Shown here piece by piece: positions 444 through 57,190 of a DNA stretch of 64,000 nucleotides. Positions within the stretch are counted from its first letter, which is position 1, and each line of letters opens with the position of its first letter. Made by a program: the position numbers and the translations under genes. The stretch comes from Laetmonice hystrix. Taxonomy: Eukaryota. Under the pieces are notes generated by a model. That model saw only the letters and a list, made by a program, of their open reading frames with translations. It searched no databases and was not told the DNA's origin. The stretch spans positions 7,876,001 through 7,940,000 of the forward strand of contig OZ249436.1 in the NCBI GenBank assembly GCA_965235115.1, read 5' to 3'.

Positions 444-484
444 AACTGATTGTTGAGTTTTGCTTTCTGTTTTAACAGGTAAGT
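444..484 (+). other. Putative recursive splice site (branch point, polypyrimidine tract, CAG|GTAAGT)
   Basis: actgat (branch-like, ~445-450), then ttttgctttctgttttaacAG (477-478) immediately followed by the consensus donor GTAAGT (479-484). A second donor CAG|GTAGGA follows at 523. Confidence 0.6.
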
Positions 485-556
485 TTCCAGAATCGTGTGA
501 CCTTAGAAAGCGGATCTAACAGGTAGGATCGGGTTCTGTCTTAGTGTCACGATATA

Positions 557-784
557 CAGTATGTCCAAAAAAAATGATAGTCGAACTTTAGGTGTGCAAT
601 ACACTTAGATATTTTAGAGGATTGTCGAATTTTGAATTTTGAAGTTTAAGTTGAACATAAAGTTTGATCCCCCTAGATAACTCTCAGCAAGTTTGGTGTT
701 GACAGGGTCACGCATTACTGATCACAACCAGTATCTCTTTTTGACAATGGAACACAGACTATAATTTTTGGGGGGGACATACTG
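557..784. mobile_element. Tc1/mariner-type MITE
   Basis: TIRs CAGTATGTCC(aaaaaaaatgatagtc) and (gactataatttttggggg)GGACATACTG, flanked by TA on both sides (555-556, 785-786). Confidence 0.75.
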
Positions 785-2835
785 TATGCATAGTGCAAAT
801 TATGTTCTACAGTTTTCTATGCTGAATTGAATTAGTCTGAGAGAAAATAAAATAGATTGACGTTCAGAGGCAGGCTGACCTGTCTGAGCTAGTTTAGTTT
901 GACATTATTGGCAGTCATTTGTTGATATAATGAAGTTAGTGTTGCAGCAGGGCGGCTATTTTTGCAGATAGTTTACTTAGCCTGCATGTGTTTGCTGATG
1001 GCTTATGTATACGGACTTGATACATAATTGTCCCTAATGCCTGGTAGAAACACAAGAACATCCAAGTTTGATATCCATGATGTGCCCACAAATACAAGAA
1101 CTCAGATCTTATCCTGCTATATATCTACATTAGATAGATATCTAGACTCCAGAGTAATTGCTCAGGTAATCAGTATATTGTTTGCGGAAAATGAGGAGTA
1201 GGCGAGAGTCTGAGACCTTGTGTTTCTGTGTGTGCCTCCTGTAAATGATATGAAGAGTCAGCCCTAGGGTGAACTGTTGGCGAGGGTGTTATATTGATGG
1301 CGTCCCAGGGTGCCCCATACATATGTTCTGATACTATGTCTAGCGGTTATCGTCCGACAGGATGTAGACAAGATGAAAGAATAATGTCTGTTGGCATTGT
1401 GGTCGACATCCAGAAAATAGGGCATATTTGTGACAGGCTTTGTGCAGTTGTAGCCTAACTCGTGTTTCCCTTATGGTGCCTACAAATATTTGCCAGCCAT
1501 TTGTATTTGTTCTGACAATACCGCTTGCATTAGTCCAGTCACATATTTGTTTTTAATTAAAACCATATCCCCAGCGAGAACTGAACCTGCAATTGGGTCT
1601 TGGATGAAGGCTGAGCACTGTAAGGCACGCCTTCACTGTATTCGTACCCACCCTCGACTGGCATGATTGGCACATGATGATCTCAGCAAGGTGACCAATG
1701 GGAGACAAGCTTACAGACGGCCATGTGGTGGGGGTATAGAGTTGCGCTGCTGAGGAAATCACCGCAAACTTTGTTGATCTTGGCAAGTTTAGGGTGCTTG
1801 ACTCATGCCGGGCTAACAGCCATAGAATACCAGCATCTTGGGGAAAAACGGGCCAGCAGTTATTTTGGAATGCCACAGGTCAGCAGACTTCACAGCTAGT
1901 GTACACACTCCAGAGCCCACTGATTTTAAACAGGGCTCAGTTGGGGCGGTCCGACTGGGGCGGCTGTCAGGACCGACAATCACAGTTATTGGGAGTGAAC
2001 ACTTACAAATGGCCGTGGTGCATGGAAAAAAGCCGGCTCAATGTGTTGGCAAAAGCAGTTAAATATGGCAGGGCAGGGGTGGGGTGGAAGGGGGTGGGTG
2101 GGGGGTAGGATTGGGTGAAAGTTAGCTTTCTGCGTAATGAGCTATTGCTGTGTATGAGAGTTGAGGGTGAATGGGTTAGATTATGTTTGGTGACCCCCGC
2201 CAGCGTCAGTCAGCGGTGTCCGACCAGCCGGCCGTGTCATTAGACCCACCTTCTGATCCTACGTAATGTTTGAAGAAATGAGAGCGGTTCATATGGAGTT
2301 AATATCATGCTTTGTAATCACATATCTGTTGACGCCACCACATGCTGACGGGAATGAGCGCCGCCAGCCCTGGGGCGTCAGGGAGACGACCCTACCCGTA
2401 CTTCATACAACTCCGAGCGCCACGGCGGGTTTCTTGACACCAAATTGGGGCCAGATGGGTCTTGTAGTCGCAAGGTGTTGGGCCTTTGGTGGGCAGGTTA
2501 CTGCAACATGCTGGAGGAATTGCTGGCAGCCTTCACCATGGTTAGGAGATGAGTAACTTCCCCTCGTGTGGTCAACAACACTCAAGTTTTAGACTTCAAG
2601 ACTTAGAGCAAGCCAGGATGGCTCAGTTGACCCGCTTGTTAGACTGTGTTCCTTCTATACGCCGGTTAGAATCCGGACATAGGCCGCCATGAGCAGTCTG
2701 TGCGACCCGGCCGTCAGTGTGGTCTGGAGCACGTAATGGAATGACCCCAAGTACTCCATGATGTCTCCTCATGAGAAGTAGATCTGTTTGGTCCCTCTCA
2801 CCTTCCCTTCCACAATAACTATGACAAAAAACGAA

Positions 2836-11300: not shown

Positions 11301-13766
11301 GGACGGATCTTGAGTGGGAATACAAAGAAGTAAGTGTGAATGTACTGTTTGAATGGAAAGTAATTGTCAGTAAGTGGATTGTGAGAAAGTATTTAATTAC
11401 TTGGCTTGGTTGGCGGTATCTTGACAGACCTTAGCCACGGGTGCACTCATCACCAAGTCAGCGTCTGTTGACAGCGTCATTGTTTATGTAAATCGTTGTC
11501 AAGGAAGGGTTTATGTTCGGAGCTCTGGGTTGTCTCTCAGCTCGCACTCAAGGAGCTGGGTTGAGTTGTTTGTCCGGAAGCGGATGTTATCATCAACCAA
11601 TCAGAGAACAGCCTCGTTTCCATCAGCAGCTGGTCCTGATGTTTTCATCAATCCTGTAGAAAAATTGCCTCTCCTGGAAGTGTACTGTATGAACAACAAT
11701 GACAGCAGAGAAGGCAAACTGATGGGTAATGGCAGATGTGACTCTAGCATCGAGGAAAGGGAGGGAGTTAGGGATGATGGGCGTGGGCGTCGACAATACA
11801 TTTGGAACTGAAACATCAAGTGGGATGGTGGGGTGGGATAAGAGTGTGGAAAGAAACCCCACAGATAGGGGTAGTAAGGGGACGGCCCTTCCACAGGGGT
11901 CAGAGGTCAGGCTGGCCTAGAGACTGCTGAATGATGTATCACAGCTTTCATGTATAACACACTAAAACCATGGGCACTTTGATAGGCACTTTAGCATAAA
12001 ATATTACCCGAATTCAAGGACAAGGTTGAAGGTCCAATAACTTCGTTCAACGTTTTCATAGCTTTTTAGTGTACAATATTGTGGACTCAGTTATTTCTGT
12101 ATATTTCCCAACTTCACCGTTTGACATGTGTATTGCCATGGTTATATTTTTTCTCAGCATTCTTACGGCTAGAAACGCTCTAAATATGCGCTGACAAGCC
12201 GTTGTTGCCTAGTCCACGTACTTGACCATGCAAGGGCCTGGGGTTGGTAGTGAGAGGGTGCTCAACCTGAATGGAACCCCTGTGTACTCGCCCCTCAGCC
12301 CCACTCAGGGTCTGCAGAGAGTTGTAAATCACCATGTCACTGTTAACCCGGCAACCTCTGAAAAAAACTGAGTGCTGTAATAATAGTAGTGACATCAAAC
12401 AGGCAACCGGACGGTCGGTCGGTCGGTCGGCTTTAGTGGGGAAAGATCCCATGTATTATAAGTGATCATGCTATCACTATTCATGCAGTGTTTTAGCCAA
12501 TTGGTTTTCCCAACCCATACCACCATTTCGTCCCTCACTCGCAGCCCTAAACGATCCCCCCCCCCCCAAATAAAGATGAAAAAGACATAAAAGAGTTCTC
12601 TAGCTTTATTGTTTATTCTGAATACAATTTCTTTTCATCACATTTATCTAAAAATCAGTGTGACTCATTGTGCGGAAGTTAACTATAGAGGCACTCAAAT
12701 TTTTCATTTTCGTAGGAAGTAATGACTCCTTGCGCCAAAAATAACCATATCAATGTAAATTGTGGTAAAGACAGTGATAAAGTCGGACCTGATAGTATCT
12801 CTTGATTGTCTTTATTGATATAGCTACTGAAATAAGAAAAGGTAAGGAAACCATACCGCAAGAATCGTAACATGCTTTTTAGCCTCTTTGATCTGCTTTA
12901 TAATGTTAAACAAAAGTGCAGCATGAAGTGTGCTTTCGTCTACGATAAATCTTTAAAACCGTAATTTACCAATATGGATGACGCATTTTTTACTCAGACA
13001 TGGATGTATGGAGCTCCCGCCAGGTGGCGGTAGTTTAGACCCCTAAGTTAGTAGAGTTGTGGTCACGTGATTTATCCGGCAGGGATAAGGAACGTCAGCA
13101 GTGCCAGCTCAGGGTTGAACGATGTAACCAGATGATGACAAACTAACATGGTAAATAGCCACCCATCTCAGGGCACAGGTCCATCCGAGCATGTGTAGAT
13201 TATAATGTGACTGGCCGTGTCCTGTCAGCTATCATTATGAACAAGTTCCTTTAATACAAGTTGAGGCAGGGGGTGGGGTGGTATTACCGCGTCCCTCAAA
13301 CAGATGCCTACCTCCAGATGTTACAGGTAGACGCCAGTAACCTTACACCCTGGCCGGGAGGGTGTTAGGGGTGGGGTTGGGTTGGTGGAATCCTGCTGTA
13401 AACTACACACATCTCATACATGGCCCTAACTCATAATGGGTTGCAAATGACAAAGATGGCTCTGGAGCACGTCGTCAGCGTAAATCACGGCGGGGAGCGC
13501 CCCCTGGTGGAGTGGAGGTGTGAAATGGTGAGAGGTTGTAAATAAAGCCACCACTCCGGGGTTGAGTGTTGGCTGGCGGTGGCTCAACGATTAGCACTCA
13601 GCCCGACCCACCTGGCTCTGGTTTATGATCATCCTCCATGGTGGGTACATACAACATGATAAGATCATGGTCTTGGCCTGCCGGGAAGGAAGAGAAGGGA
13701 TAGGGCGGTTTACATCATGTCTTATGTCCGTGAGCTGCATATGTATGGTATTTGGGACCCATGAAC

Positions 13767-14260
13767 TGACGGGTGTAGATCTATACAAGCCCAGAAATGG
13801 AGGACACTCTACCAGCATAACGAAGAATTGACGGGTGTGGATCTATACAAGCCCAGAAATGGAGGACACTCTACCAGCATAACGAAGAATTGACGGGTGT
13901 AGATCTATACAAGCCCAGAAATGGAGGACACTCTACCAGCATAACGAAGAATTTACGGGTTTAGATCTATACAAGCCCAGAAATGGAGGACACTCTACCA
14001 GCATAACGAAGAATTGACGGGTGTGGATCTATACAAGCCCAGAAATGGAGGACACTCTACCAGCATAACGAAGAATTTACGGGTTTAGATCTATACAAGC
14101 CCAGAAATGGAGGACACTCTACCAGCATAACGAAGAATTTACGGGTTTAGATCTATACAAGCCCAGAAATGGAGGACACTCTACCAGCATAACGAAGAAT
14201 TGACGGGTGTAGATCTATACAAGCCCAGAAATGGAGGACACTCTACCAGTATAACGAAGA
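13767..14260. repeat. 62-bp minisatellite, 8 copies (single copy at 17347-17406 in the duplicate)
   Basis: Unit tgacgggtgtagatctatacaagcccagaaatggaggacactctaccagcataacgaagaat, starting at 13767, 13829 ... 14201. Confidence 0.95.
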
Positions 14261-14585
14261 GTGTGTCAAAGTAACATTACATCGGTTATATCCAATTGAC
14301 ACATATAAATTAATTGCCCTGTGGTAGTGGTACCCTACCCTGTAATTTACCAATCTCGGTAAAGTAGCTATCGTCTAATTAGATAAAACAACATAGTACG
14401 GTAAATTGCTGTAGGCCGGATCCATCCTTAATAAACACAGTTCCTTATACATCCAGGGGTGTCCGCAAGTCCTGGGAAACTTGGAAAAGTCCGGGAATTT
14501 ATTATTAGTGTCTCCTGGGGATTGAAAACTACGAGAATTTCATTTCCTTACTGAAGTCCGAGAAAGGTCCTAAAAATTGACAGAT

Positions 14586-14671
14586 TTCCTAGAAGACGAT
14601 TCACGAGTTCCTAGAAGACGATTCACGAGTTCCTAGAAGACGATTCAGGCGTTCCTAGAAGACGATTCACG
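14586..14671. repeat. 22-bp tandem repeat, 4 copies (3 copies at ~17727-17790)
   Basis: Unit ttcctagaagacgattcacgag. Confidence 0.9.
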
Positions 14672-16096
14672 ATCGGGATGCTATTTTCCTTTCGTCACCT
14701 TTATCAAGGAGAACGGAGTCCTGAACATGGTCATGGAAAAGATCGTTAAAGGAAAGGCCCGGGAAAATTCCCGAAATTTTGTTATGCTGACAAAGTTCTC
14801 ACAACTATTTTACGGTCGGCTTTATTAATTATTATACGGATTAGTTTTTGAATAGATTGAAGTTGCTGATGGCTGATGGGTGATCTATCTTTGAAGGCTC
14901 TAGTTGGGCCCGCTAAAGTGAAGTGTATATAAAGTGAAGTGTATACATGTATAAAGGCCCTCAGCCGAGCCGCGTGGGCCGAACGGAAGAAAGCAATTGG
15001 CGTGTGGACAGACCCAGCTGAAGGTGATCAAGTTGTAGGGATAGTTGACTCAAGCAGCAAGCACTCCCCTGCCTGTAGGTTCTGTTAGGTCATGGGTCCG
15101 TACCAGATGGCCATCCACTCTGGCTCCAGATACTCCACCCCACTCCACTAACACTGTCTCTGGCAGAACTCAGAAGTTGCCTGAAATACGGCGCAAACTG
15201 CCAACATTCACAGATGTTGCAATCTGAAGTCAGTGCTCGTAATCCTATAAATACAGCGTCAATGCAGGTTTAATACGTGTCGTCCGGAACTGGTTATGTG
15301 GCCGAGAGGCGATGTGTTGTATTGTTATTGATATTAATGGTACACATATAGGTATAGTTAGCTTCCTGGCCAAAGTAACAAATTGATCTCGGCTATGTTA
15401 GCTTTAATCATTCACCCTACTCATACCACTAATCTAGTGCATATTGTCGCATTTTTTTCTGAGCGTTGCTGTAAAAGAAAAATGTATTACTAACCAGCCA
15501 GCTTTATTTGATCAAGAAAATCTATTATTGTTGCATTCGTTTAAAAAAAGACATGTGCCTTTGCAGACGCCATATTTGTTGTGCGAACCAGACTTGGGTT
15601 TTTTCTATACCAATTTGCGTTTCAGAGGTTGCTCCTTCTGCCTTGGAGCAATTTTTTTGCCGTCAGCCAAGTTTCTAACAAATACCTAAGTTGCATGTTG
15701 CTCCCAGGTGTGGCACACATCTGGCAGAACATACGGGGCCCGCCTGACACTGCACGTGCTGCCCCCTGGTGGGCCGGCAGCCATTCAAACACCAACTCGA
15801 GTTAGAGAAAACCTGGATTCATAATGAAGTGATTCCCAGAATGCACCCCGCCAACTCTGGCTATATCTCAGGACAAGTGTACAATCATTGATTTTTGGAT
15901 ATTGAAGAGTCAGAACTAAGACAAACGCCGTAAAACCACGGTAAGAACTCGGCACTTAGGGCAGGTATAAATTTAGAGGTCAGTCAGGAGCCTGGACCCC
16001 TGCGAAACAGACGCAATGTTGACCTGAGGACCAGGCTGGTCAGTCACGAGGGAAGAGAATGGTGTAGTCAATAGAGGCAGAACAGCTGTGAAAAAT

Positions 16097-16236
16097 GTAA
16101 CCTATGTGTCAACGTGAGTGGTGAGCTATGTGTCAAAGCGAGCGGTGAGCTATGTGTCAAAGCAAGCGGTGAGCTATGTGTCAAAGCGAGCGGTGAGCTA
16201 TGTGTCAAAGCGAGCGGTGAGCTATGTGTCAAAGCG
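16097..16236. repeat. 24-bp tandem repeat, ~6 copies (duplicated at 19208-19347)
   Basis: Unit gtgagctatgtgtcaaagcgagcg; source of the VSYVSKRA ORFs. Confidence 0.92.
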
Positions 16237-19200
16237 CAGACGGCGCGGACTGAATGGACTCGACTCGGTCGTAATGGCTAACAAGTGTTTGGGGATGCCC
16301 CTCCTCCTACTTTTTTAGGACTCATTAACCCTAACTTTTTGGAGTGGTTTATATGAGCCACACTGATGATATCCACAGATCTGGCTGTAAAATGAGAACT
16401 AGAAAGCGTTGTATCTTTTATGGGATTGTTATGTGATAATTTATTTACACAATGAAAGGTCTGCCTCTTTGATCTGCTTTATAATGTTAAACAAAAGTGT
16501 AGCATGAAGTGTGCTTTCGTCTACGATAAATCTTTAAAACCGTAATTTACCAATATGGATGACGCATTTTTTACTCAGTCATGGATGTATGGAGCTCCCG
16601 CCAGGTGGCGGTAGTTTAGGCCCCTAAGTTAGTAGAGTTGTGGTCACGTGATTTATCCGGCAGGGATAAGGAACGTCAGCAGTGCCAGCTCAGGGTTGAA
16701 CGATGTAACCAGATGATGACAAACTAACATGGTAAATAGCCACCCATCTCAGGGCACAGGTCCATCCGAGCATGTGTAGATTATAATGTGACTGGCCGTG
16801 TCCTGTCAGCTATCATTATGAACAAGTTCCTTAATACAAGTTGAGGCAGGGGGTGGGGTGGTATTACCGCGTCCCTCAAACAGATGCCTACCTCCAGATG
16901 TTACAGGTAGACGCCAGTAACCTTACACCCTGGCGGGGAGGGTGTTAGGGGTGGGGTTGGGTTGGTGGAATCCTGCTGTAAACTACACACATCTCATACA
17001 TGGCCCTAACTCATAATGGGTTGCAAATGACAAAGATGGCTCTGGAGCACGTCGTCAGCGTAAATCACGGCGGGGAGCGCCCCCTGGTGGAGTGGAGGTG
17101 TGAAATGGTGAGAGGTTGTAAATAAAGCCACCACTCCGGGGTTGAGTGTTGGTTGGCGGTGGCTCAACGATTAGCACTCAGCCCGACCCACCTGGGTCTG
17201 GTTTATGATCATCCTCCATGGTGGGTACATACAACATGATAAGAGCATGGTCTTGGCCTGCCGGGAAGGAAGAGAAGGGATAGGGCGGTTTACATCATGT
17301 CTTATGTCCGTGAGCTGCATATGTATGGTATTTGGGACCCATGAACTGACGGGTGTAGATCTATACAAGCCCAGAAATGGAGGACACTGTACCAGTATAA
17401 CGAAGAGTGTGTCAGGGTAACGTTACATCAGTTATATCCAATTGACACATATAAATTAATTGCCCTGTGGTAGTGGTATCCTACCCTGTAATTTACCAAC
17501 CTCGGTAAAGTAGCTAGTGTAATTAGATAAAACAACATAGTACGGTAAATTGCTGTAGACCGTATCCATCCTTAAACACAGTTCCTTATACCTCCAGGGG
17601 GGTCCGCAAGTCCTGGGAAACTTAGAAAAATCCGGGAATTTATTATTGGTTCCTCCTGGGGATGGAAAACTACGAGAATTTCATTTCCTTGCTGAAGTCC
17701 GGGAACGGTCCTAAAAATTGACAGATTTCCTAGAAGACGATTCACGAGTTCCTAGAAGACGATTCACGCGTTCCTAGAAGACGATTCACGATCGGGATGC
17801 TATTTTCCTTTCGTCACCTTTATCAAGGAGAACGGAGTCCTGAACATGGTCATGGAAAAGATCATTAAAGGACAGGCCCGGGAAAATTCCCGAAATTTTG
17901 TTATGCTGACAAAGTTCTCACAACTATTTTACGGTCGGCTTTATTAATTATTATACGGATTAGTTTTTGAATAGATTGAAGTTGCTGATGGCTGGGTGAT
18001 CGATCTTTAAAGGCTCTAGTTGGGCCCGCTAAGGTGAAGTGTATATAAAGTGAAGTGTATATAAAGGCCCTCAGCCGAGCCGCGTGGGCCCGAACGGAAG
18101 AAAGCAATTGGCGTGTGGACAGACCCAGCTGAAGGTGATCAAGTTGTAGGGATAGTTGACTCAAGCAGCAAGCACTCCCCTGCCTGTAGATTCTGTTAGG
18201 TCATGGGTCCGTACCAGATGGCCATCCACCCTGACTCCAGTTACTCCACCCCACTCCACTAACACTGTCTCTGGCAGAACTCAGAAGTTGCCTGAAATAC
18301 GGCGCAAACTGCCAACATTCACAGATGTTGCAGTCTGAAGTCAGTGCTCGTAATCCTATAAATACAGCGTCAATGCAGGTTTAATGCGTGTCGTCCGGAA
18401 CTGGTTATGTGGCCGAGAGGCGATGTGTACTATTGTTATTGAGATGAATGGTACACATATAGGTATAGTTAGCTTCCTGGCCAAAGTAACAAATTGATCT
18501 CGGCTCTGTTAGCTTTAATCATTCACCCTACTCATACCACTAATCTAGTGCATATTTTCGCATTTTTTTCTGAGCGTTGCTGTAAAAGAAAAATGTATTA
18601 CTAACCAGCCAGCTTTATTTGATCAAGAAAATCTATTATTGTTGCATCCGTTTAAAAAAAGACATGTGCCTTTGCAGACGCCGTATTTGTTGTGCGAACC
18701 AGACTTGGGTTTTTTCTATACCAATTTGCGTTTCAGAGGTTGCTCCTTCTGCCTTGGAGCAATTTTTTTGCCGTCAGCCAAGTTTCTAACAAATACCTAA
18801 GTTGCATGTTGCTCCCAGGTGTGGCACACATCTGGCAGAACATACGGGGCCCGCCTGACACTGCACGTGCTGCCCCCTGGTGGGCCGGCAGCCATTCAAA
18901 CACCAACTCAAGTTAGAAAAAACCTGGATTCATAATGAAGTGATTCCTAGAATGCACCCCGCCAACTCTGGCTATATCTCAGGACAAGTGTACAATCATT
19001 GATTTTTGGATATTGAAGAGTCAGAACTAAGACAAACGCCGTAAAACCACGGTAAGAACTCGGCACTTAGGGCAGGTATAAATTTAGAGGTCAGTCAGGA
19101 GCCTGGACCCCTGCGAAACAGACGCAATTTTGACCTGAGGACCAGGCTGGTCAGTCACGAGGGAAGAGAATGGTGTAGTCAATAGAGGCAGAACAGCTGT

Positions 19201-20449
19201 GAAAAATGTAACCTATGTGTCAACGTGAGTGGTGAGCTATGTGTCAAAGCGAGCGGTGAGCTATGTGTCAAAGCAAGCGGTGAGCTATGTGTCAAAGCGA
19301 GCGGTGAGCTATGTGTCAAAGCGAGCGGTGAGCTATGTGTCAAAGCGCAGACGGCGCGGACTGAATGGACTCGACTCGGTCGTAATGGCTAACAAGTGTT
19401 TGGGGATGCCCCTCCTCCTACTTTTTTAGGACTCATTAACCCTAACTTTTTGGAGTGGTTTATATGAGCCACACTGATGATATCCACAGATCTGGCTGTA
19501 AAATGAGAACTAGAAAGCGTTGTATCTTTTATGGGATTGTTATGTGATAATTTATTTACACAATGAAAGGTCTGAAAAAGGAAGTTTTCTATCAAAAGGC
19601 CAGCCATTTTGTGTTATTTCTTAGCAAGAGTGATACACATCGCTTTTCTTTAAAAAAAAGAAGAGGTGACTAGTAAGTTCAGTTCAATAAAAGCTTTAAA
19701 GATATTTTTTAAACTTCGTTTTGGGAGGAAAAACTGTGGACCTCTCATTGTGTTGTAATAATCCCGCCGGGTGTTTGAATTGAGTCTTCAAAGCCGCGAT
19801 GATTGCCTTGTCAAAAGGAGTACTAACATTATTTTTAGGTATATTTTGATCATTAGAATTACCAACGAATGTGATTATGTGCTTTTCTTTCCAACAAACG
19901 TCCGGAAACATTGAAATGATGTGAGACCTAAAAAGTTCATTATCCAAAGAATACTACGTACCACCTCTTGTGATGTAGAGGGTGAGACTGGAAACTGTGA
20001 AAACACCTCGTTGTGATTACTCAGGTGGTATTTTATACAGCTACCTGTCATCTCCAAACGGTCTATTGTAATTACCCGGTCTAACTTAAAAACTTGTAAT
20101 CGCATGTCACTGCGGCTGACAATCGCAACCCTTCATCTGACGTGGAACACATGTTACTAATACATGTCTGTAATCCGCGCATGCGTGTAGACGCTTTATC
20201 CGGATAGAGACGCTGAGAAATAAATACCTGTAGAAACTGTCTTCATGAGGTAATCAAAAAATTATCGAGACTGATTATATTTAAGCTACGATGAGTGGTT
20301 ACGTAACCTGACATAGACTAGTGGCGCTGTCTTGATAATTACTCGGTGTTAGTAATTACTACCTGCTCCCCGGGCAGGTAAAACGTGCAGGTGTTGGTGT
20401 CGAGGTGAACCTGTTGACGCCTTGCTCAGTCATGTTGTCTCTGTTTCAG

Positions 20450-53087: not shown

Positions 53088-53307
53088 GGAGATGCGGAGG
53101 CTCGTCGTAACCAGTTGATGAGGGACATGGCCCAGCTCCGGTTGCAGGCCGAGGTCAGCCAGTTGGAAGGCTCCCTGCAGGTCGCCGCCGATCAACCGTC
53201 CCTACCGCCATATTTGGTGCCCGACGCGAGCGCCCTCTGTGACAACCTACCCCAGTTACGAACGCTGTCCCACTCGGCCAGATTCATCATGATAATTCCT
53301 CTGGCTG
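53088..53307 (+). CDS. SMG5: SMG5 coding exon (helix preceding the PIN domain plus PIN N-terminus)
   Basis: Acceptor ttctttgtttttacAG (53086-53087) and donor G|GTAAGT (53308); phase 0 to phase 1. Translates GDAEARRNQLMRDMAQLRLQAEVSQLEGSLQ...PPYLVPDASALCDNLPQLRTLSHSARFIMIIPLA, closely matching my recollection of vertebrate SMG5 EEARRNRLMRDMAQLRLQLEVSQLEGSLQ...PYLVPDTQALC...FIVIIP. Confidence 0.96.
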
Positions 53308-53672: not shown

Positions 53673-55475
53673 GTGTTAGATACTGGTAGAGCCGTAATGA
53701 TGTTAGATACCGGTGGAGACGTAATGATGTTAGATACCGGTGGAGACGTAATGATGTCAGATACCGGTGGAGACGTAATGATGTCAGATACCGGTGGAGA
53801 CGTAATTATGTCAGATACCGGTGGAGACGTAATGATGTCAGATACCGGTGGAGACGTAATGATGTCAGATACCGGTGGAGACGTAATGATGTTAGATACC
53901 GGTGGAGACGTAATGATGTCAGATACCGGTGGAGACGTAATGATGTTAGATACCGGTGGAGACGTAATGATGTTAGATACCGGTGGAGACGTAATGATGT
54001 TAGATACCGGTGGAGACATAATGATGTTAGATACCGGTGGAGACATAATGATGTTAGATACCGGTGGAGACGTAATGGACGTAATGATGTTAGATACCGG
54101 TGGAGACGTAATGATGTCAGATACCGGTGGAGACGTAATGATGTTAGATACCGGTGGAGACGTAATGATGTCAGATACCGGTGGAGACGTAATGATGTCA
54201 GATACCGGTGGAGACGTAATGATGTCAGATACCGGTGGAGACGTAATGATGTTAGATACCGGTGGAGACGTAATGATGTCAGATACCGGTGGAGACGTAA
54301 TGATGTCAGATACCGGTGGAGACGTAATGATGTCAGATACCGGTGGAGACGTAATGATGTCAGATACCGGTGGAGACGTAATGATGTCAGATACCGGTGG
54401 AGACGTAATGATGTCAGATACCGGTGGAGACGTAATGATGTTAGATACCGGTGGAGACGTAATGATGTTAGATACCGGTGGAGACGTAATGATGTTAGAT
54501 ACCGGTGGAGACGTAATGATGTTAGATACCGGTGGAGACGTAATGGACGTAATGATGTTAGATACCGGTAGAGACGTAATGATGTTAGATACCGGTGGGG
54601 ACGTAATGATGTTAGATACCGGTGGAGACGTAATGGACATAATGATGTTAGATACCGGTAGAGACGTAATGATGTTAGATACCGGTGGGGACGTAATGAT
54701 GTCAGATACCGGTGGAGACGTAATGATGTTAGATACCGGTGGAGACGTAATGATGTTAGATACCGGTGGAGACGTAATGATGTCAGATACCGGTAGAGAC
54801 ATAATGATGTTAGATACCGGTGGAGACGTAATGGACGTAATGATGTTAGATACCGATGGAGACGTAATGGACGTAATGATGTTAGATACCGGTGGAGACG
54901 TAATGATGTTAGATACCGGTGGAGACGTAATGGACGTAATGATGTTAGATACCGGTGGAGACGTAATGATGTTAGATACCGGTGGAGACGTAATGGACGT
55001 AATGATGTTAGATACCGGTGGAGACGTAATGGACGTAATGATGTTAGATACCGGTGGAGACGTAATGATGTTAGATACCGGTGGAGACGTAATGGACGTA
55101 ATGATGTTAGATACCGGTAGAGACGTAATGGACGTAATGATGTTAGATACCGGTGGAGACGTAATGATGTTAGATACCGGTGGAGACGTAATGATGTTAG
55201 ATACCGGTGGAGACGTAATGATGTTAGATACCGGTGGAGACGTAATGATGTTAGATACCGGTGGAGACATAATGATGTTAGATACCGGTGGAGACGTAAT
55301 GATGTTAGATACCGGTGGAGACGTGATGATGTTAGATACCGACGGAGACGTAATGATGTTAGATACCGGTGGAGACGTAATGATGTTAGATACCGGTGGA
55401 GACGTAATGATGTTAGATACCGGTGGAGACGTAATGATGTTAGATACCGGTGGAGACGTAATGATGTTAGATACT
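53673..55475. repeat. 27-bp intronic minisatellite, ~60-65 copies, some with a 9-bp ggacgtaat insertion; degenerate units from ~53460
   Basis: Unit gatgttagataccggtggagacgtaat. It fills most of the SMG5 intron 53308-55507 and is the source of the 570-651 aa repetitive ORFs. Confidence 0.98.
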
Positions 55476-55507: not shown

Positions 55508-55598
55508 TGATCGACCACCTTGACCTGCTGAAGAAAGGCTGTCCAGGAGCCCGGGAGGCAATCCGCTGGCTGGAGGCTGAGTTCAGAAAGGGCAACAG
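55508..55598 (+). CDS. SMG5: SMG5 coding exon (PIN domain)
   Basis: Acceptor cttgtAG (55506-55507) and donor AG|GTCAGC (55599); phase 1 to 2, 91 nt. Translates (V)IDHLDLLKKGCPGAREAIRWLEAEFRKGN(R); compare SMG5 VIDGLDLLKKEHPGARDGIRYLEAEFKKGNR. Confidence 0.95.
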
Positions 55599-56034: not shown

Positions 56035-56115
56035 GTATGTGAGAGCGCAGAAAACGCACGAGAAGATCTCAACCGTGCCACATAAAAACCTCAAAAAGCG
56101 TGACAAGGATGCTTG
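56035..56115 (+). CDS. SMG5: SMG5 coding exon (PIN domain)
   Basis: Acceptor tttttttctgctgtAG (56033-56034) and donor TG|GTAGGT (56116); phase 2 to 2, 81 nt. Translates (R)YVRAQKTHEKISTVPHKNLKKRDKDA(W); compare SMG5 YIRCQKE...KLKRQDADAW. Confidence 0.92.
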
Positions 56116-57032: not shown

Positions 57033-57190
57033 GCGCGTGCTCCAGATCACTGACTGTTGTAAGTACCTGTCCCAGCAGAGCTCTGAGTGGGACTCGAAGG
57101 GTTTGGTCTGTGTACTCTCCAACCTAGACGCTAACAGTGACGACCTCTCGATCCGCGTCCGACAGGCTTTCGCTGCCGCCCAACACGAGG
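57033..57190 (+). CDS. SMG5: SMG5 coding exon (PIN domain)
   Basis: Acceptor ttgttgttgcAG (57031-57032) and donor G|GTAAGC (57191); phase 2 to 1, 158 nt. Translates (W)RVLQITDCCKYLSQQSSEWDSKGLVCVLSNLDANSDDLSIRVRQAFAAAQHE; compare SMG5 LYKILDSCKQL...GMVTIITGL...AALQAAAHA. Confidence 0.9.

Follow-up and report, generated by a model that had tools for sequence, protein, structure and literature searches.

A candidate recursive splice site in the giant SMG5 intron of the annelid Laetmonice hystrix and a genome-wide class of similar cassettes

An intron of nearly 100 kb interrupts the SMG5 gene of the annelid Laetmonice hystrix, and close to its middle a splice acceptor directly abuts a splice donor. 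The question raised by this locus is whether the fused site is a ratchet point, at which the intron would be removed stepwise, or a run of splice-like letters without a role in splicing. We analyzed a 64,000-nucleotide stretch of contig OZ249436.1 (positions 7,876,001 to 7,940,000, forward strand), called the window below, together with its flanks and the genome assembly. Published work is cited from the portions of each paper that were accessible to us.

The SMG5 gene and its giant intron

We built a gene model by aligning homologues to the window and its flanks (100 kb upstream, 20 kb downstream), with splice sites fixed by hand. The open reading frame at 53,058 matches SMG5 proteins, and the homology-based model has 24 exons, 23 of 23 introns with GT-AG ends, and a product of 1,113 amino acids free of internal stops. 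Intron 19 spans 99,991 nt in phase 0; the other 22 introns measure 120 to 2,200 nt, and the median of all 23 is 310 nt. In a quick tree, the protein groups with Capitella and three other proteins (SH-aLRT 99), a group whose internal order the tree leaves open, and molluscs, Lingula, and nemerteans fall outside the group of Laetmonice SMG5 and Capitella, a placement in keeping with an annelid host.

The fused site lies on the sense strand of intron 19, 47,382 nt after its donor and 52,609 nt before its acceptor (47.4% of the intron length). The sequence-only reading that drew attention to the site had placed it in a giant SMG5 intron, and the gene model agrees, so the site is not outside the gene. 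Coordinates are collected in Table 1.

Table 1. Features of the SMG5 locus, numbered from the first letter of the window
Feature	Position	Strand	Basis
SMG5 intron 19, 3' part; intron begins 46,903 nt before the window	1-53,087	+	Gene model
Branch-point-like ACTGAT	445-450	+	Motif match
U-rich tract before the acceptor, with an atypical A at -5 (474)	451-475	+	Letters, tract score
CAG acceptor of the candidate ratchet point	476-478	+	Letters, acceptor score
GTAAGT; joined to exon 19 would become donor ATG/GTAAGT	479-484	+	Letters, gene model
Predicted cryptic RS-exon, 44 nt; inclusion would give a stop at codon 932	479-522	+	In silico frame
Second donor CAG/GTAGGA, would define the RS-exon	520-528	+	Letters, donor score
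High-copy dispersed repeat	553-787		Genome search
SMG5 exon 20, follows the giant intron and opens the C-terminal (PIN-region) part	53,088-53,307	+	Gene model
SMG5 exon 21	55,508-55,598	+	Gene model
SMG5 exon 22	56,035-56,115	+	Gene model
SMG5 exon 23	57,033-57,190	+	Gene model
SMG5 exon 24, coding part up to the stop codon	58,693-58,763	+	Gene model

Searches for a nested gene in intron 19 were negative within their scope. None of 150 ORFs, comprising the longest and those near the site, scored above the Pfam cut-off (three gave weak sub-threshold matches), and Rfam returned no match over 114 kb. An exon scan for exons of 45 to 320 nt, which recovers neighboring genes, gave one candidate in the intron, a GA microsatellite. 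About 27% of intron 19 is tandem or locally repeated sequence, and a local duplication of roughly 2 to 3 kb carries the same ORFs and tandem units twice (13,591-16,236 and 17,171-19,347). Intron 20 holds a 27-nt minisatellite of about 63 copies (53,674-55,474) that ends just before the acceptor of exon 21.

The first 19 SMG5 exons are packed into 8 kb of a gene-dense region, and the last five lie in a gene-poor stretch of at least 150 kb (46.9 kb upstream of the window, positions 1-53,087, then 58.8 to at least 104 kb). By eye, the 45 kb downstream of SMG5 contains no clear exons. CpG depletion is stronger over the 5' exons (observed/expected, 0.18 to 0.64) than over most of intron 19. The locus looks like that of a bystander gene within a regulatory block; as for a developmental target gene, none of 148 homeobox matches lies near it.

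SMG5 database fragments from three Octopus species, Argonauta, Plakobranchus, the crinoid Anneissia, and the fish Notothenia start at residues 906 to 909, the position of the intron 19 junction, in a search that favored fragments of this region and with start points that assembly breaks could also produce. Fragments from Ridgeia (residue 918), Tachypleus, Cherax, Saccoglossus, Oryzias, Ranitomeya, Plectus, and birds start off the junction. As a hint, to be taken as a lead only, intron 19 may be old, long, or annotation-breaking in other animals too.

The fused site at 478/479 and its RS-exon

The acceptor letters are TTTTAACAG, with T at -6 and A at -5, where T is usual. The branch-point-like motif places its A (449) at -30 from the acceptor, one AG lies between that A and the acceptor AG, and the tract is T-rich from 451 to 473, with 11 T within -28 to -10. 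Its CAG directly abuts GTAAGT, and the GT of the second donor stands at 523-524, which delimits a piece of 44 nt. We confirmed letter by letter the motif described in the sequence-only reading (actgat about 30 nt upstream, a U-rich tract, CAG/GTAAGT, and a donor 44 nt on), and all elements are on the + strand, as is the SMG5 gene model.

The site is covered without a variant letter in DNA contigs of three of three runs, all from one sample that is possibly the source of the assembly, and a 440-nt flank stretch is likewise invariant in that sample. Positions 380-552 have no second match in the genome search, and the exact site has no match in metagenomes. An identical 9-nt word occurs at 473-481, across the fused site, and at 517-525, across the second donor; the remaining 44-nt spacing has no repeat. 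The short dispersed repeat, which begins about 30 nt past the second donor and lies outside the cassette, is very high copy, with 335 candidates in the genome search and a very high summed depth in the DNA contigs.

Two other origins of the letters were considered and rejected. A spliced-leader RNA gene is disfavored by the single genome match of 380-552 and the lack of an Rfam match in 114 kb. Tandem duplication of a splice junction, which is common in this genome, is disfavored since there is no tandem array at the site and the two donors share only the 9-nt word. RNA structure at the site does not exceed that of shuffled sequences (z -0.5).

We scored splice sites with an acceptor model trained on the introns of SMG5 itself and a donor matrix built on textbook frequencies. 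At 13.2 bits, the site ranks first among 630 sense and 358 antisense AGGT sites of intron 19; the next best reach 8.0 bits (sense) and 8.4 bits (antisense). Its acceptor score of 6.1 is attained by 17 of about 6,700 sense AGs, GTAAGT has a frequency of 2.1e-4, and 1.7% of random positions are followed at the same distance by a donor scoring 4.5 bits or more. By this reckoning, an intron of such size would hold the fused site by chance with a probability of about 4e-3, falling to about 6e-5 once the second donor is required; both figures are post hoc and depend on the textbook donor matrix. No further ratchet point with a good donor and an RS-exon was found in intron 19.

We consider it likely that the site works as a ratchet point for recursive splicing, with a mostly skipped RS-exon, and splits intron 19 into 47.4 and 52.6 kb. 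Once the polymerase has moved past 478, the 44-nt exon would be defined between this acceptor and the donor at 523, and exon 19 would be spliced to 479. The junction would recreate a donor (6.2 bits) predicted to outcompete CAG/GTAGGA (5.1 bits), and a second splice would join exon 19 to exon 20 at 53,088, leaving no trace in the mature mRNA. Occasional use of the 523 donor would yield a frameshifted transcript, a predicted NMD substrate without the C-terminal part.

Other splice signals on the + strand might account for the same letters. The AG at 442-443 is a weak acceptor at 443 (3.4 bits), from which GTAAGT could serve as the donor of a 35-nt exon (444-478), and an exon of a non-coding transcript within the intron would escape the coding scans used. 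However, the 35-nt exon would consist of the branch point and U-tract themselves and would stop SMG5 at codon 909, neither a coding exon candidate nor an Rfam match lies near the site, and the second donor, at the distance typical of the class described below, would be left unexplained. The sequence-only reading had also named an ordinary exon ending at 478 as an alternative; each of the three frames meets a stop within 150 nt upstream, and the exon scan is empty there. We judge splice signals of these other kinds to be very unlikely.

Cassettes of the same layout across the genome

We defined a cassette, by sequence pattern, as a strong acceptor followed by GTAAGT and a second donor 34 to 64 nt on. 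Genome-wide, 36 GTAAGT cassettes compare with 3 for the composition-matched word GTAATG in the same pattern. The 36 remain from 54 rows after removal of 16 belonging to one minisatellite and 2 that were tandem-like; for GTAATG, all three rows were kept.

It is the surroundings of the fused motif that set GTAAGT sites apart from controls. A donor of at least 4.5 bits lies 30 to 70 nt downstream of 13 of 28 GTAAGT sites and of 1 of 28 controls (p=4e-4), and at a looser threshold of 3.5 bits the contrast is smaller (15/28 versus 5/28; p=0.011). This distance range was chosen after the first 20 sites, and 5 of the 10 sites added later were positive; in other distance ranges, GTAAGT and control sites were alike. 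The GTAAGT sites were 30 from two motif searches (every hit of the first, 23, and 7 from the second) minus 2 copies of one repeat, and the controls were drawn from 30 sites (12 GTAATG, 8 GTATTT, and 10 GTAATT), of which 28 were used, a repeat copy being left out. Pyrimidine outside the search pattern is more frequent at GTAAGT sites (0.63 versus 0.51), and branch-like words are commoner there too (19/28 versus 6/28). With a looser tract, and with tandem arrays dropped by eye, contigs C1 to C12 gave 41 cassettes at 34 to 64 nt and 11 at 77 to 107 nt among the matches listed (100 of 150 for one search). Cassettes with T at -5 numbered 33 for GTAAGT and 15 for GTATGT, against 19 for nine non-donor words together (among the matches listed, 100 of 106).

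The fused motif without a second donor is not enriched (23 versus 26 for the reversed pattern), nor does GTAAGT exceed GTAATG in it (10 versus 12 among the matches listed, 100 of 195). Plain motif counts against reversed patterns are uninformative because minisatellites swell both sides. Minisatellites with a donor-like YAG/GTA junction in their unit lie at C1:19017248-19018038, C7:7889749-7890235, C12:26313500 onward, and C6:15919928 onward.

Cassettes that lie close together tend to share an orientation: all three pairs within 30 kb (22.5, 23.8, and 26.2 kb) and all five within 120 kb run in the same direction, where 0.06 and 0.24 pairs were expected. Taken together, these patterns suggest that fly-type recursive splicing with cryptic RS-exons is very probably widespread in an annelid genome, which would point to a mechanism shared across bilaterians.

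Several loci stand out individually. A second group, in which the recreated donor would be GTATGT, has at least 15 cassettes against about 2 per non-donor word (100 of 106 matches), and two of its members, C4:17656891 and C4:17693371, are co-oriented 36.5 kb apart. On C3, three unrelated same-strand ratchet-like sites (8365605, 8391795, and 8421763) follow one another at 26 and 30 kb, each with T at -5; this triplet is a better test case than the SMG5 site. On C10, a 364-codon Ser/Pro-rich ORF (8033617-8034707) with no Pfam match and a strong donor at its end lies between two same-strand cassettes. The paired C10 cassettes are therefore more likely in neighboring introns of one gene than in a single shared intron.

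Against this class, the SMG5 site is an uneven fit. The fused acceptor and donor, the sense strand of a very long intron, the pyrimidine tract, and the branch motif near -30 are all present, and the RS-exon donor is weaker than the recreated one, by the small margin given above and according to the textbook matrix. TT at -5/-6, a sequence trait and not part of the mechanistic definition, is absent. T stands at -5 in the other 35 of the 36 cassettes, A being found only in the SMG5 site, and none of the 23 SMG5 acceptors has A there. The acceptor score is lower than those of 14 of 15 scored class cassettes, which were chosen by a pattern that demands a strong tract, and the two segments exceed the 22- to 30-kb spacing of cassettes elsewhere in this genome. 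The A at -5 is the main doubt about the SMG5 site.

This doubt feeds the alternative that the motif is a product of chance or decay without a splicing role, intron 19 being removed in one step or via scattered weak sites. Across contigs C1 to C5, about 15 unique A(-5) cassettes were found over 18 words among the matches listed, with the SMG5 site as the sole GTAAGT case, so this subclass shows no excess over control words; extrapolation from these contigs to the whole genome predicts roughly 2 A(-5) cassettes by chance for each hexamer. Among long introns of flies, no more than 6% are recursive (10.1101/006163), and the long introns of lungfish do not in general shift to fixed recursive sites (10.1101/2024.12.11.627982). 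Yet the tract beyond the search pattern scores 3.3 bits, a strength matched by just 2 of 72 background YYYTANYAG sites with A at -5 and by 8 of 15 class cassettes, and a chance motif would also have had to land in sense orientation close to the center of a giant intron. We regard a chance or decayed motif as unlikely. A rough weighing, with a guessed giant-intron share and A(-5) rate, makes it highly likely at the least that the SMG5 cassette is a selected splice element. The feature is real, probably functional, and of a known kind, and it is better supported as a genome class than as an individual site.

RS-exon lengths of the class run from 34 to 64 nt, the searched range, with a median of 47.5. 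Frame preservation, suggested by 9 of 15 in a first sample, was rejected in the full set, where 15 of 36 are divisible by 3 (p=0.19). For SMG5, the sequence-only reading had proposed that inclusion of the 44-nt exon would shift the frame. Our in silico inclusion in the gene model bears this out and gives a premature stop: the predicted stop is followed by four junctions, the nearest of them 189 nt away. The significance that the reading attached to an NMD factor becoming an NMD target did not hold up in the same way, since a frameshifting RS-exon is the ordinary case in flies (PMC8605326), and feedback is possible at most. A premature stop is an ordinary hazard of RS-exons and not evidence of NMD feedback, which is speculation for SMG5.

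One alternative to a mostly skipped exon is that the 44 nt are included at a meaningful rate, as a regulated RS-exon or poison exon that tunes SMG5 through NMD feedback. The position of the predicted stop suits this role, only about 1 bit separates the two donors, mammalian SMG5 mRNA belongs to an NMD feedback loop (PMC8082775), and flies include certain RS-exons even where the ratchet donor is the stronger one (PMC8605326). On the other hand, out-of-frame, skipped RS-exons are the norm (PMC8605326), the recreated donor is stronger than the RS-exon donor, and class lengths show no frame bias. A regulated poison exon seems rather improbable, and we prefer the mostly skipped RS-exon. We would give a similarly low chance to the joint proposal of annelid-wide, fly-type recursive splicing as a bilaterian-wide mechanism together with an SMG5 RS-exon, with its near-balanced donors and maybe old long intron, that acts as an NMD feedback switch.

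Comparison with known recursive splicing systems

Recursive splicing is an already known mechanism, and the new part is the controlled sequence evidence for a full fly-type cassette class in an annelid genome. In the literature searched, most of it outside subscription journals, we found no report of recursive splicing in annelids or molluscs, or in SMG5; the sequence-only reading had likewise known of no precedent for SMG5 or lophotrochozoans. The class, with at least 36 GTAAGT cassettes and the GTATGT group, would add a third branch of bilaterians, and it is relevant to the question of whether recursive splicing guided by RS-exons is older than the split between insects and vertebrates. The cassette list is a ready set of candidate sites for RNA-level testing. 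If it is true that the SMG5 RS-exon is regulated, recursive splicing would be linked to NMD self-control.

The NMD feedback loop of Huang et al. and Yepiskoposyan et al. reportedly works through long 3' UTRs and uORFs and not through an RS-exon. Mammalian NMD-factor feedback is like the SMG5 reading in that SMG5 mRNA can be an NMD target (PMC8082775).

A computational study found enrichment of RP-sites in introns longer than 50 kb of fly, mosquito, bee, beetle, and sea urchin (PMC2773006). Like ours, its evidence for ratchet points in non-fly invertebrates comes from sequence; it differs in that the fused site alone was scored, and the terms annelid and mollus- are absent from its accessible text.

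Vertebrate recursive sites (Sibley 2015; Blazquez 2018) resemble the proposal made here in the order of events, RS-exon definition followed by donor competition. Fully skipped intronic recursive sites are few in mammals, with nine noted in the accessible part of one account (PMC8605326), whereas a single narrow pattern yields at least 36 strict cassettes in this genome, which is closer to the fly situation.

The closest counterparts are the ratchet points of Drosophila (Ubx, kuz, Bx, and luna), which share with the SMG5 site the fused acceptor and donor, a very long intron, a branch point near -30, where fly branch points peak (10.1101/006163), and a strong U tract. The sequence-only reading had likened the two on the AG/GT joint and the short cryptic exon with a downstream donor, a likeness that the fly literature supports (PMC8605326). 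Drosophila RS-exons are about 50 nt long, have a weaker closing donor, and by the published account are as a rule out of frame and skipped in every case (PMC8605326); the SMG5 candidate is similar in length, donor strength, and frame. A single fly recursive site tends to lie nearer the intron midpoint than expected by chance (PMC6110457), and the SMG5 site is likewise single and near the midpoint. The differences are that the SMG5 site has A and not T at -5, whereas positions -5/-6 are TT in 196 of 197 ratchet points of flies (10.1101/006163), and that its segments of about 50 kb exceed the fly mean of 18 kb and fall near the top of the fly range of 2.6 to 63.6 kb (10.1101/006163). The host is an annelid, and the SMG5 site is a candidate ratchet point.
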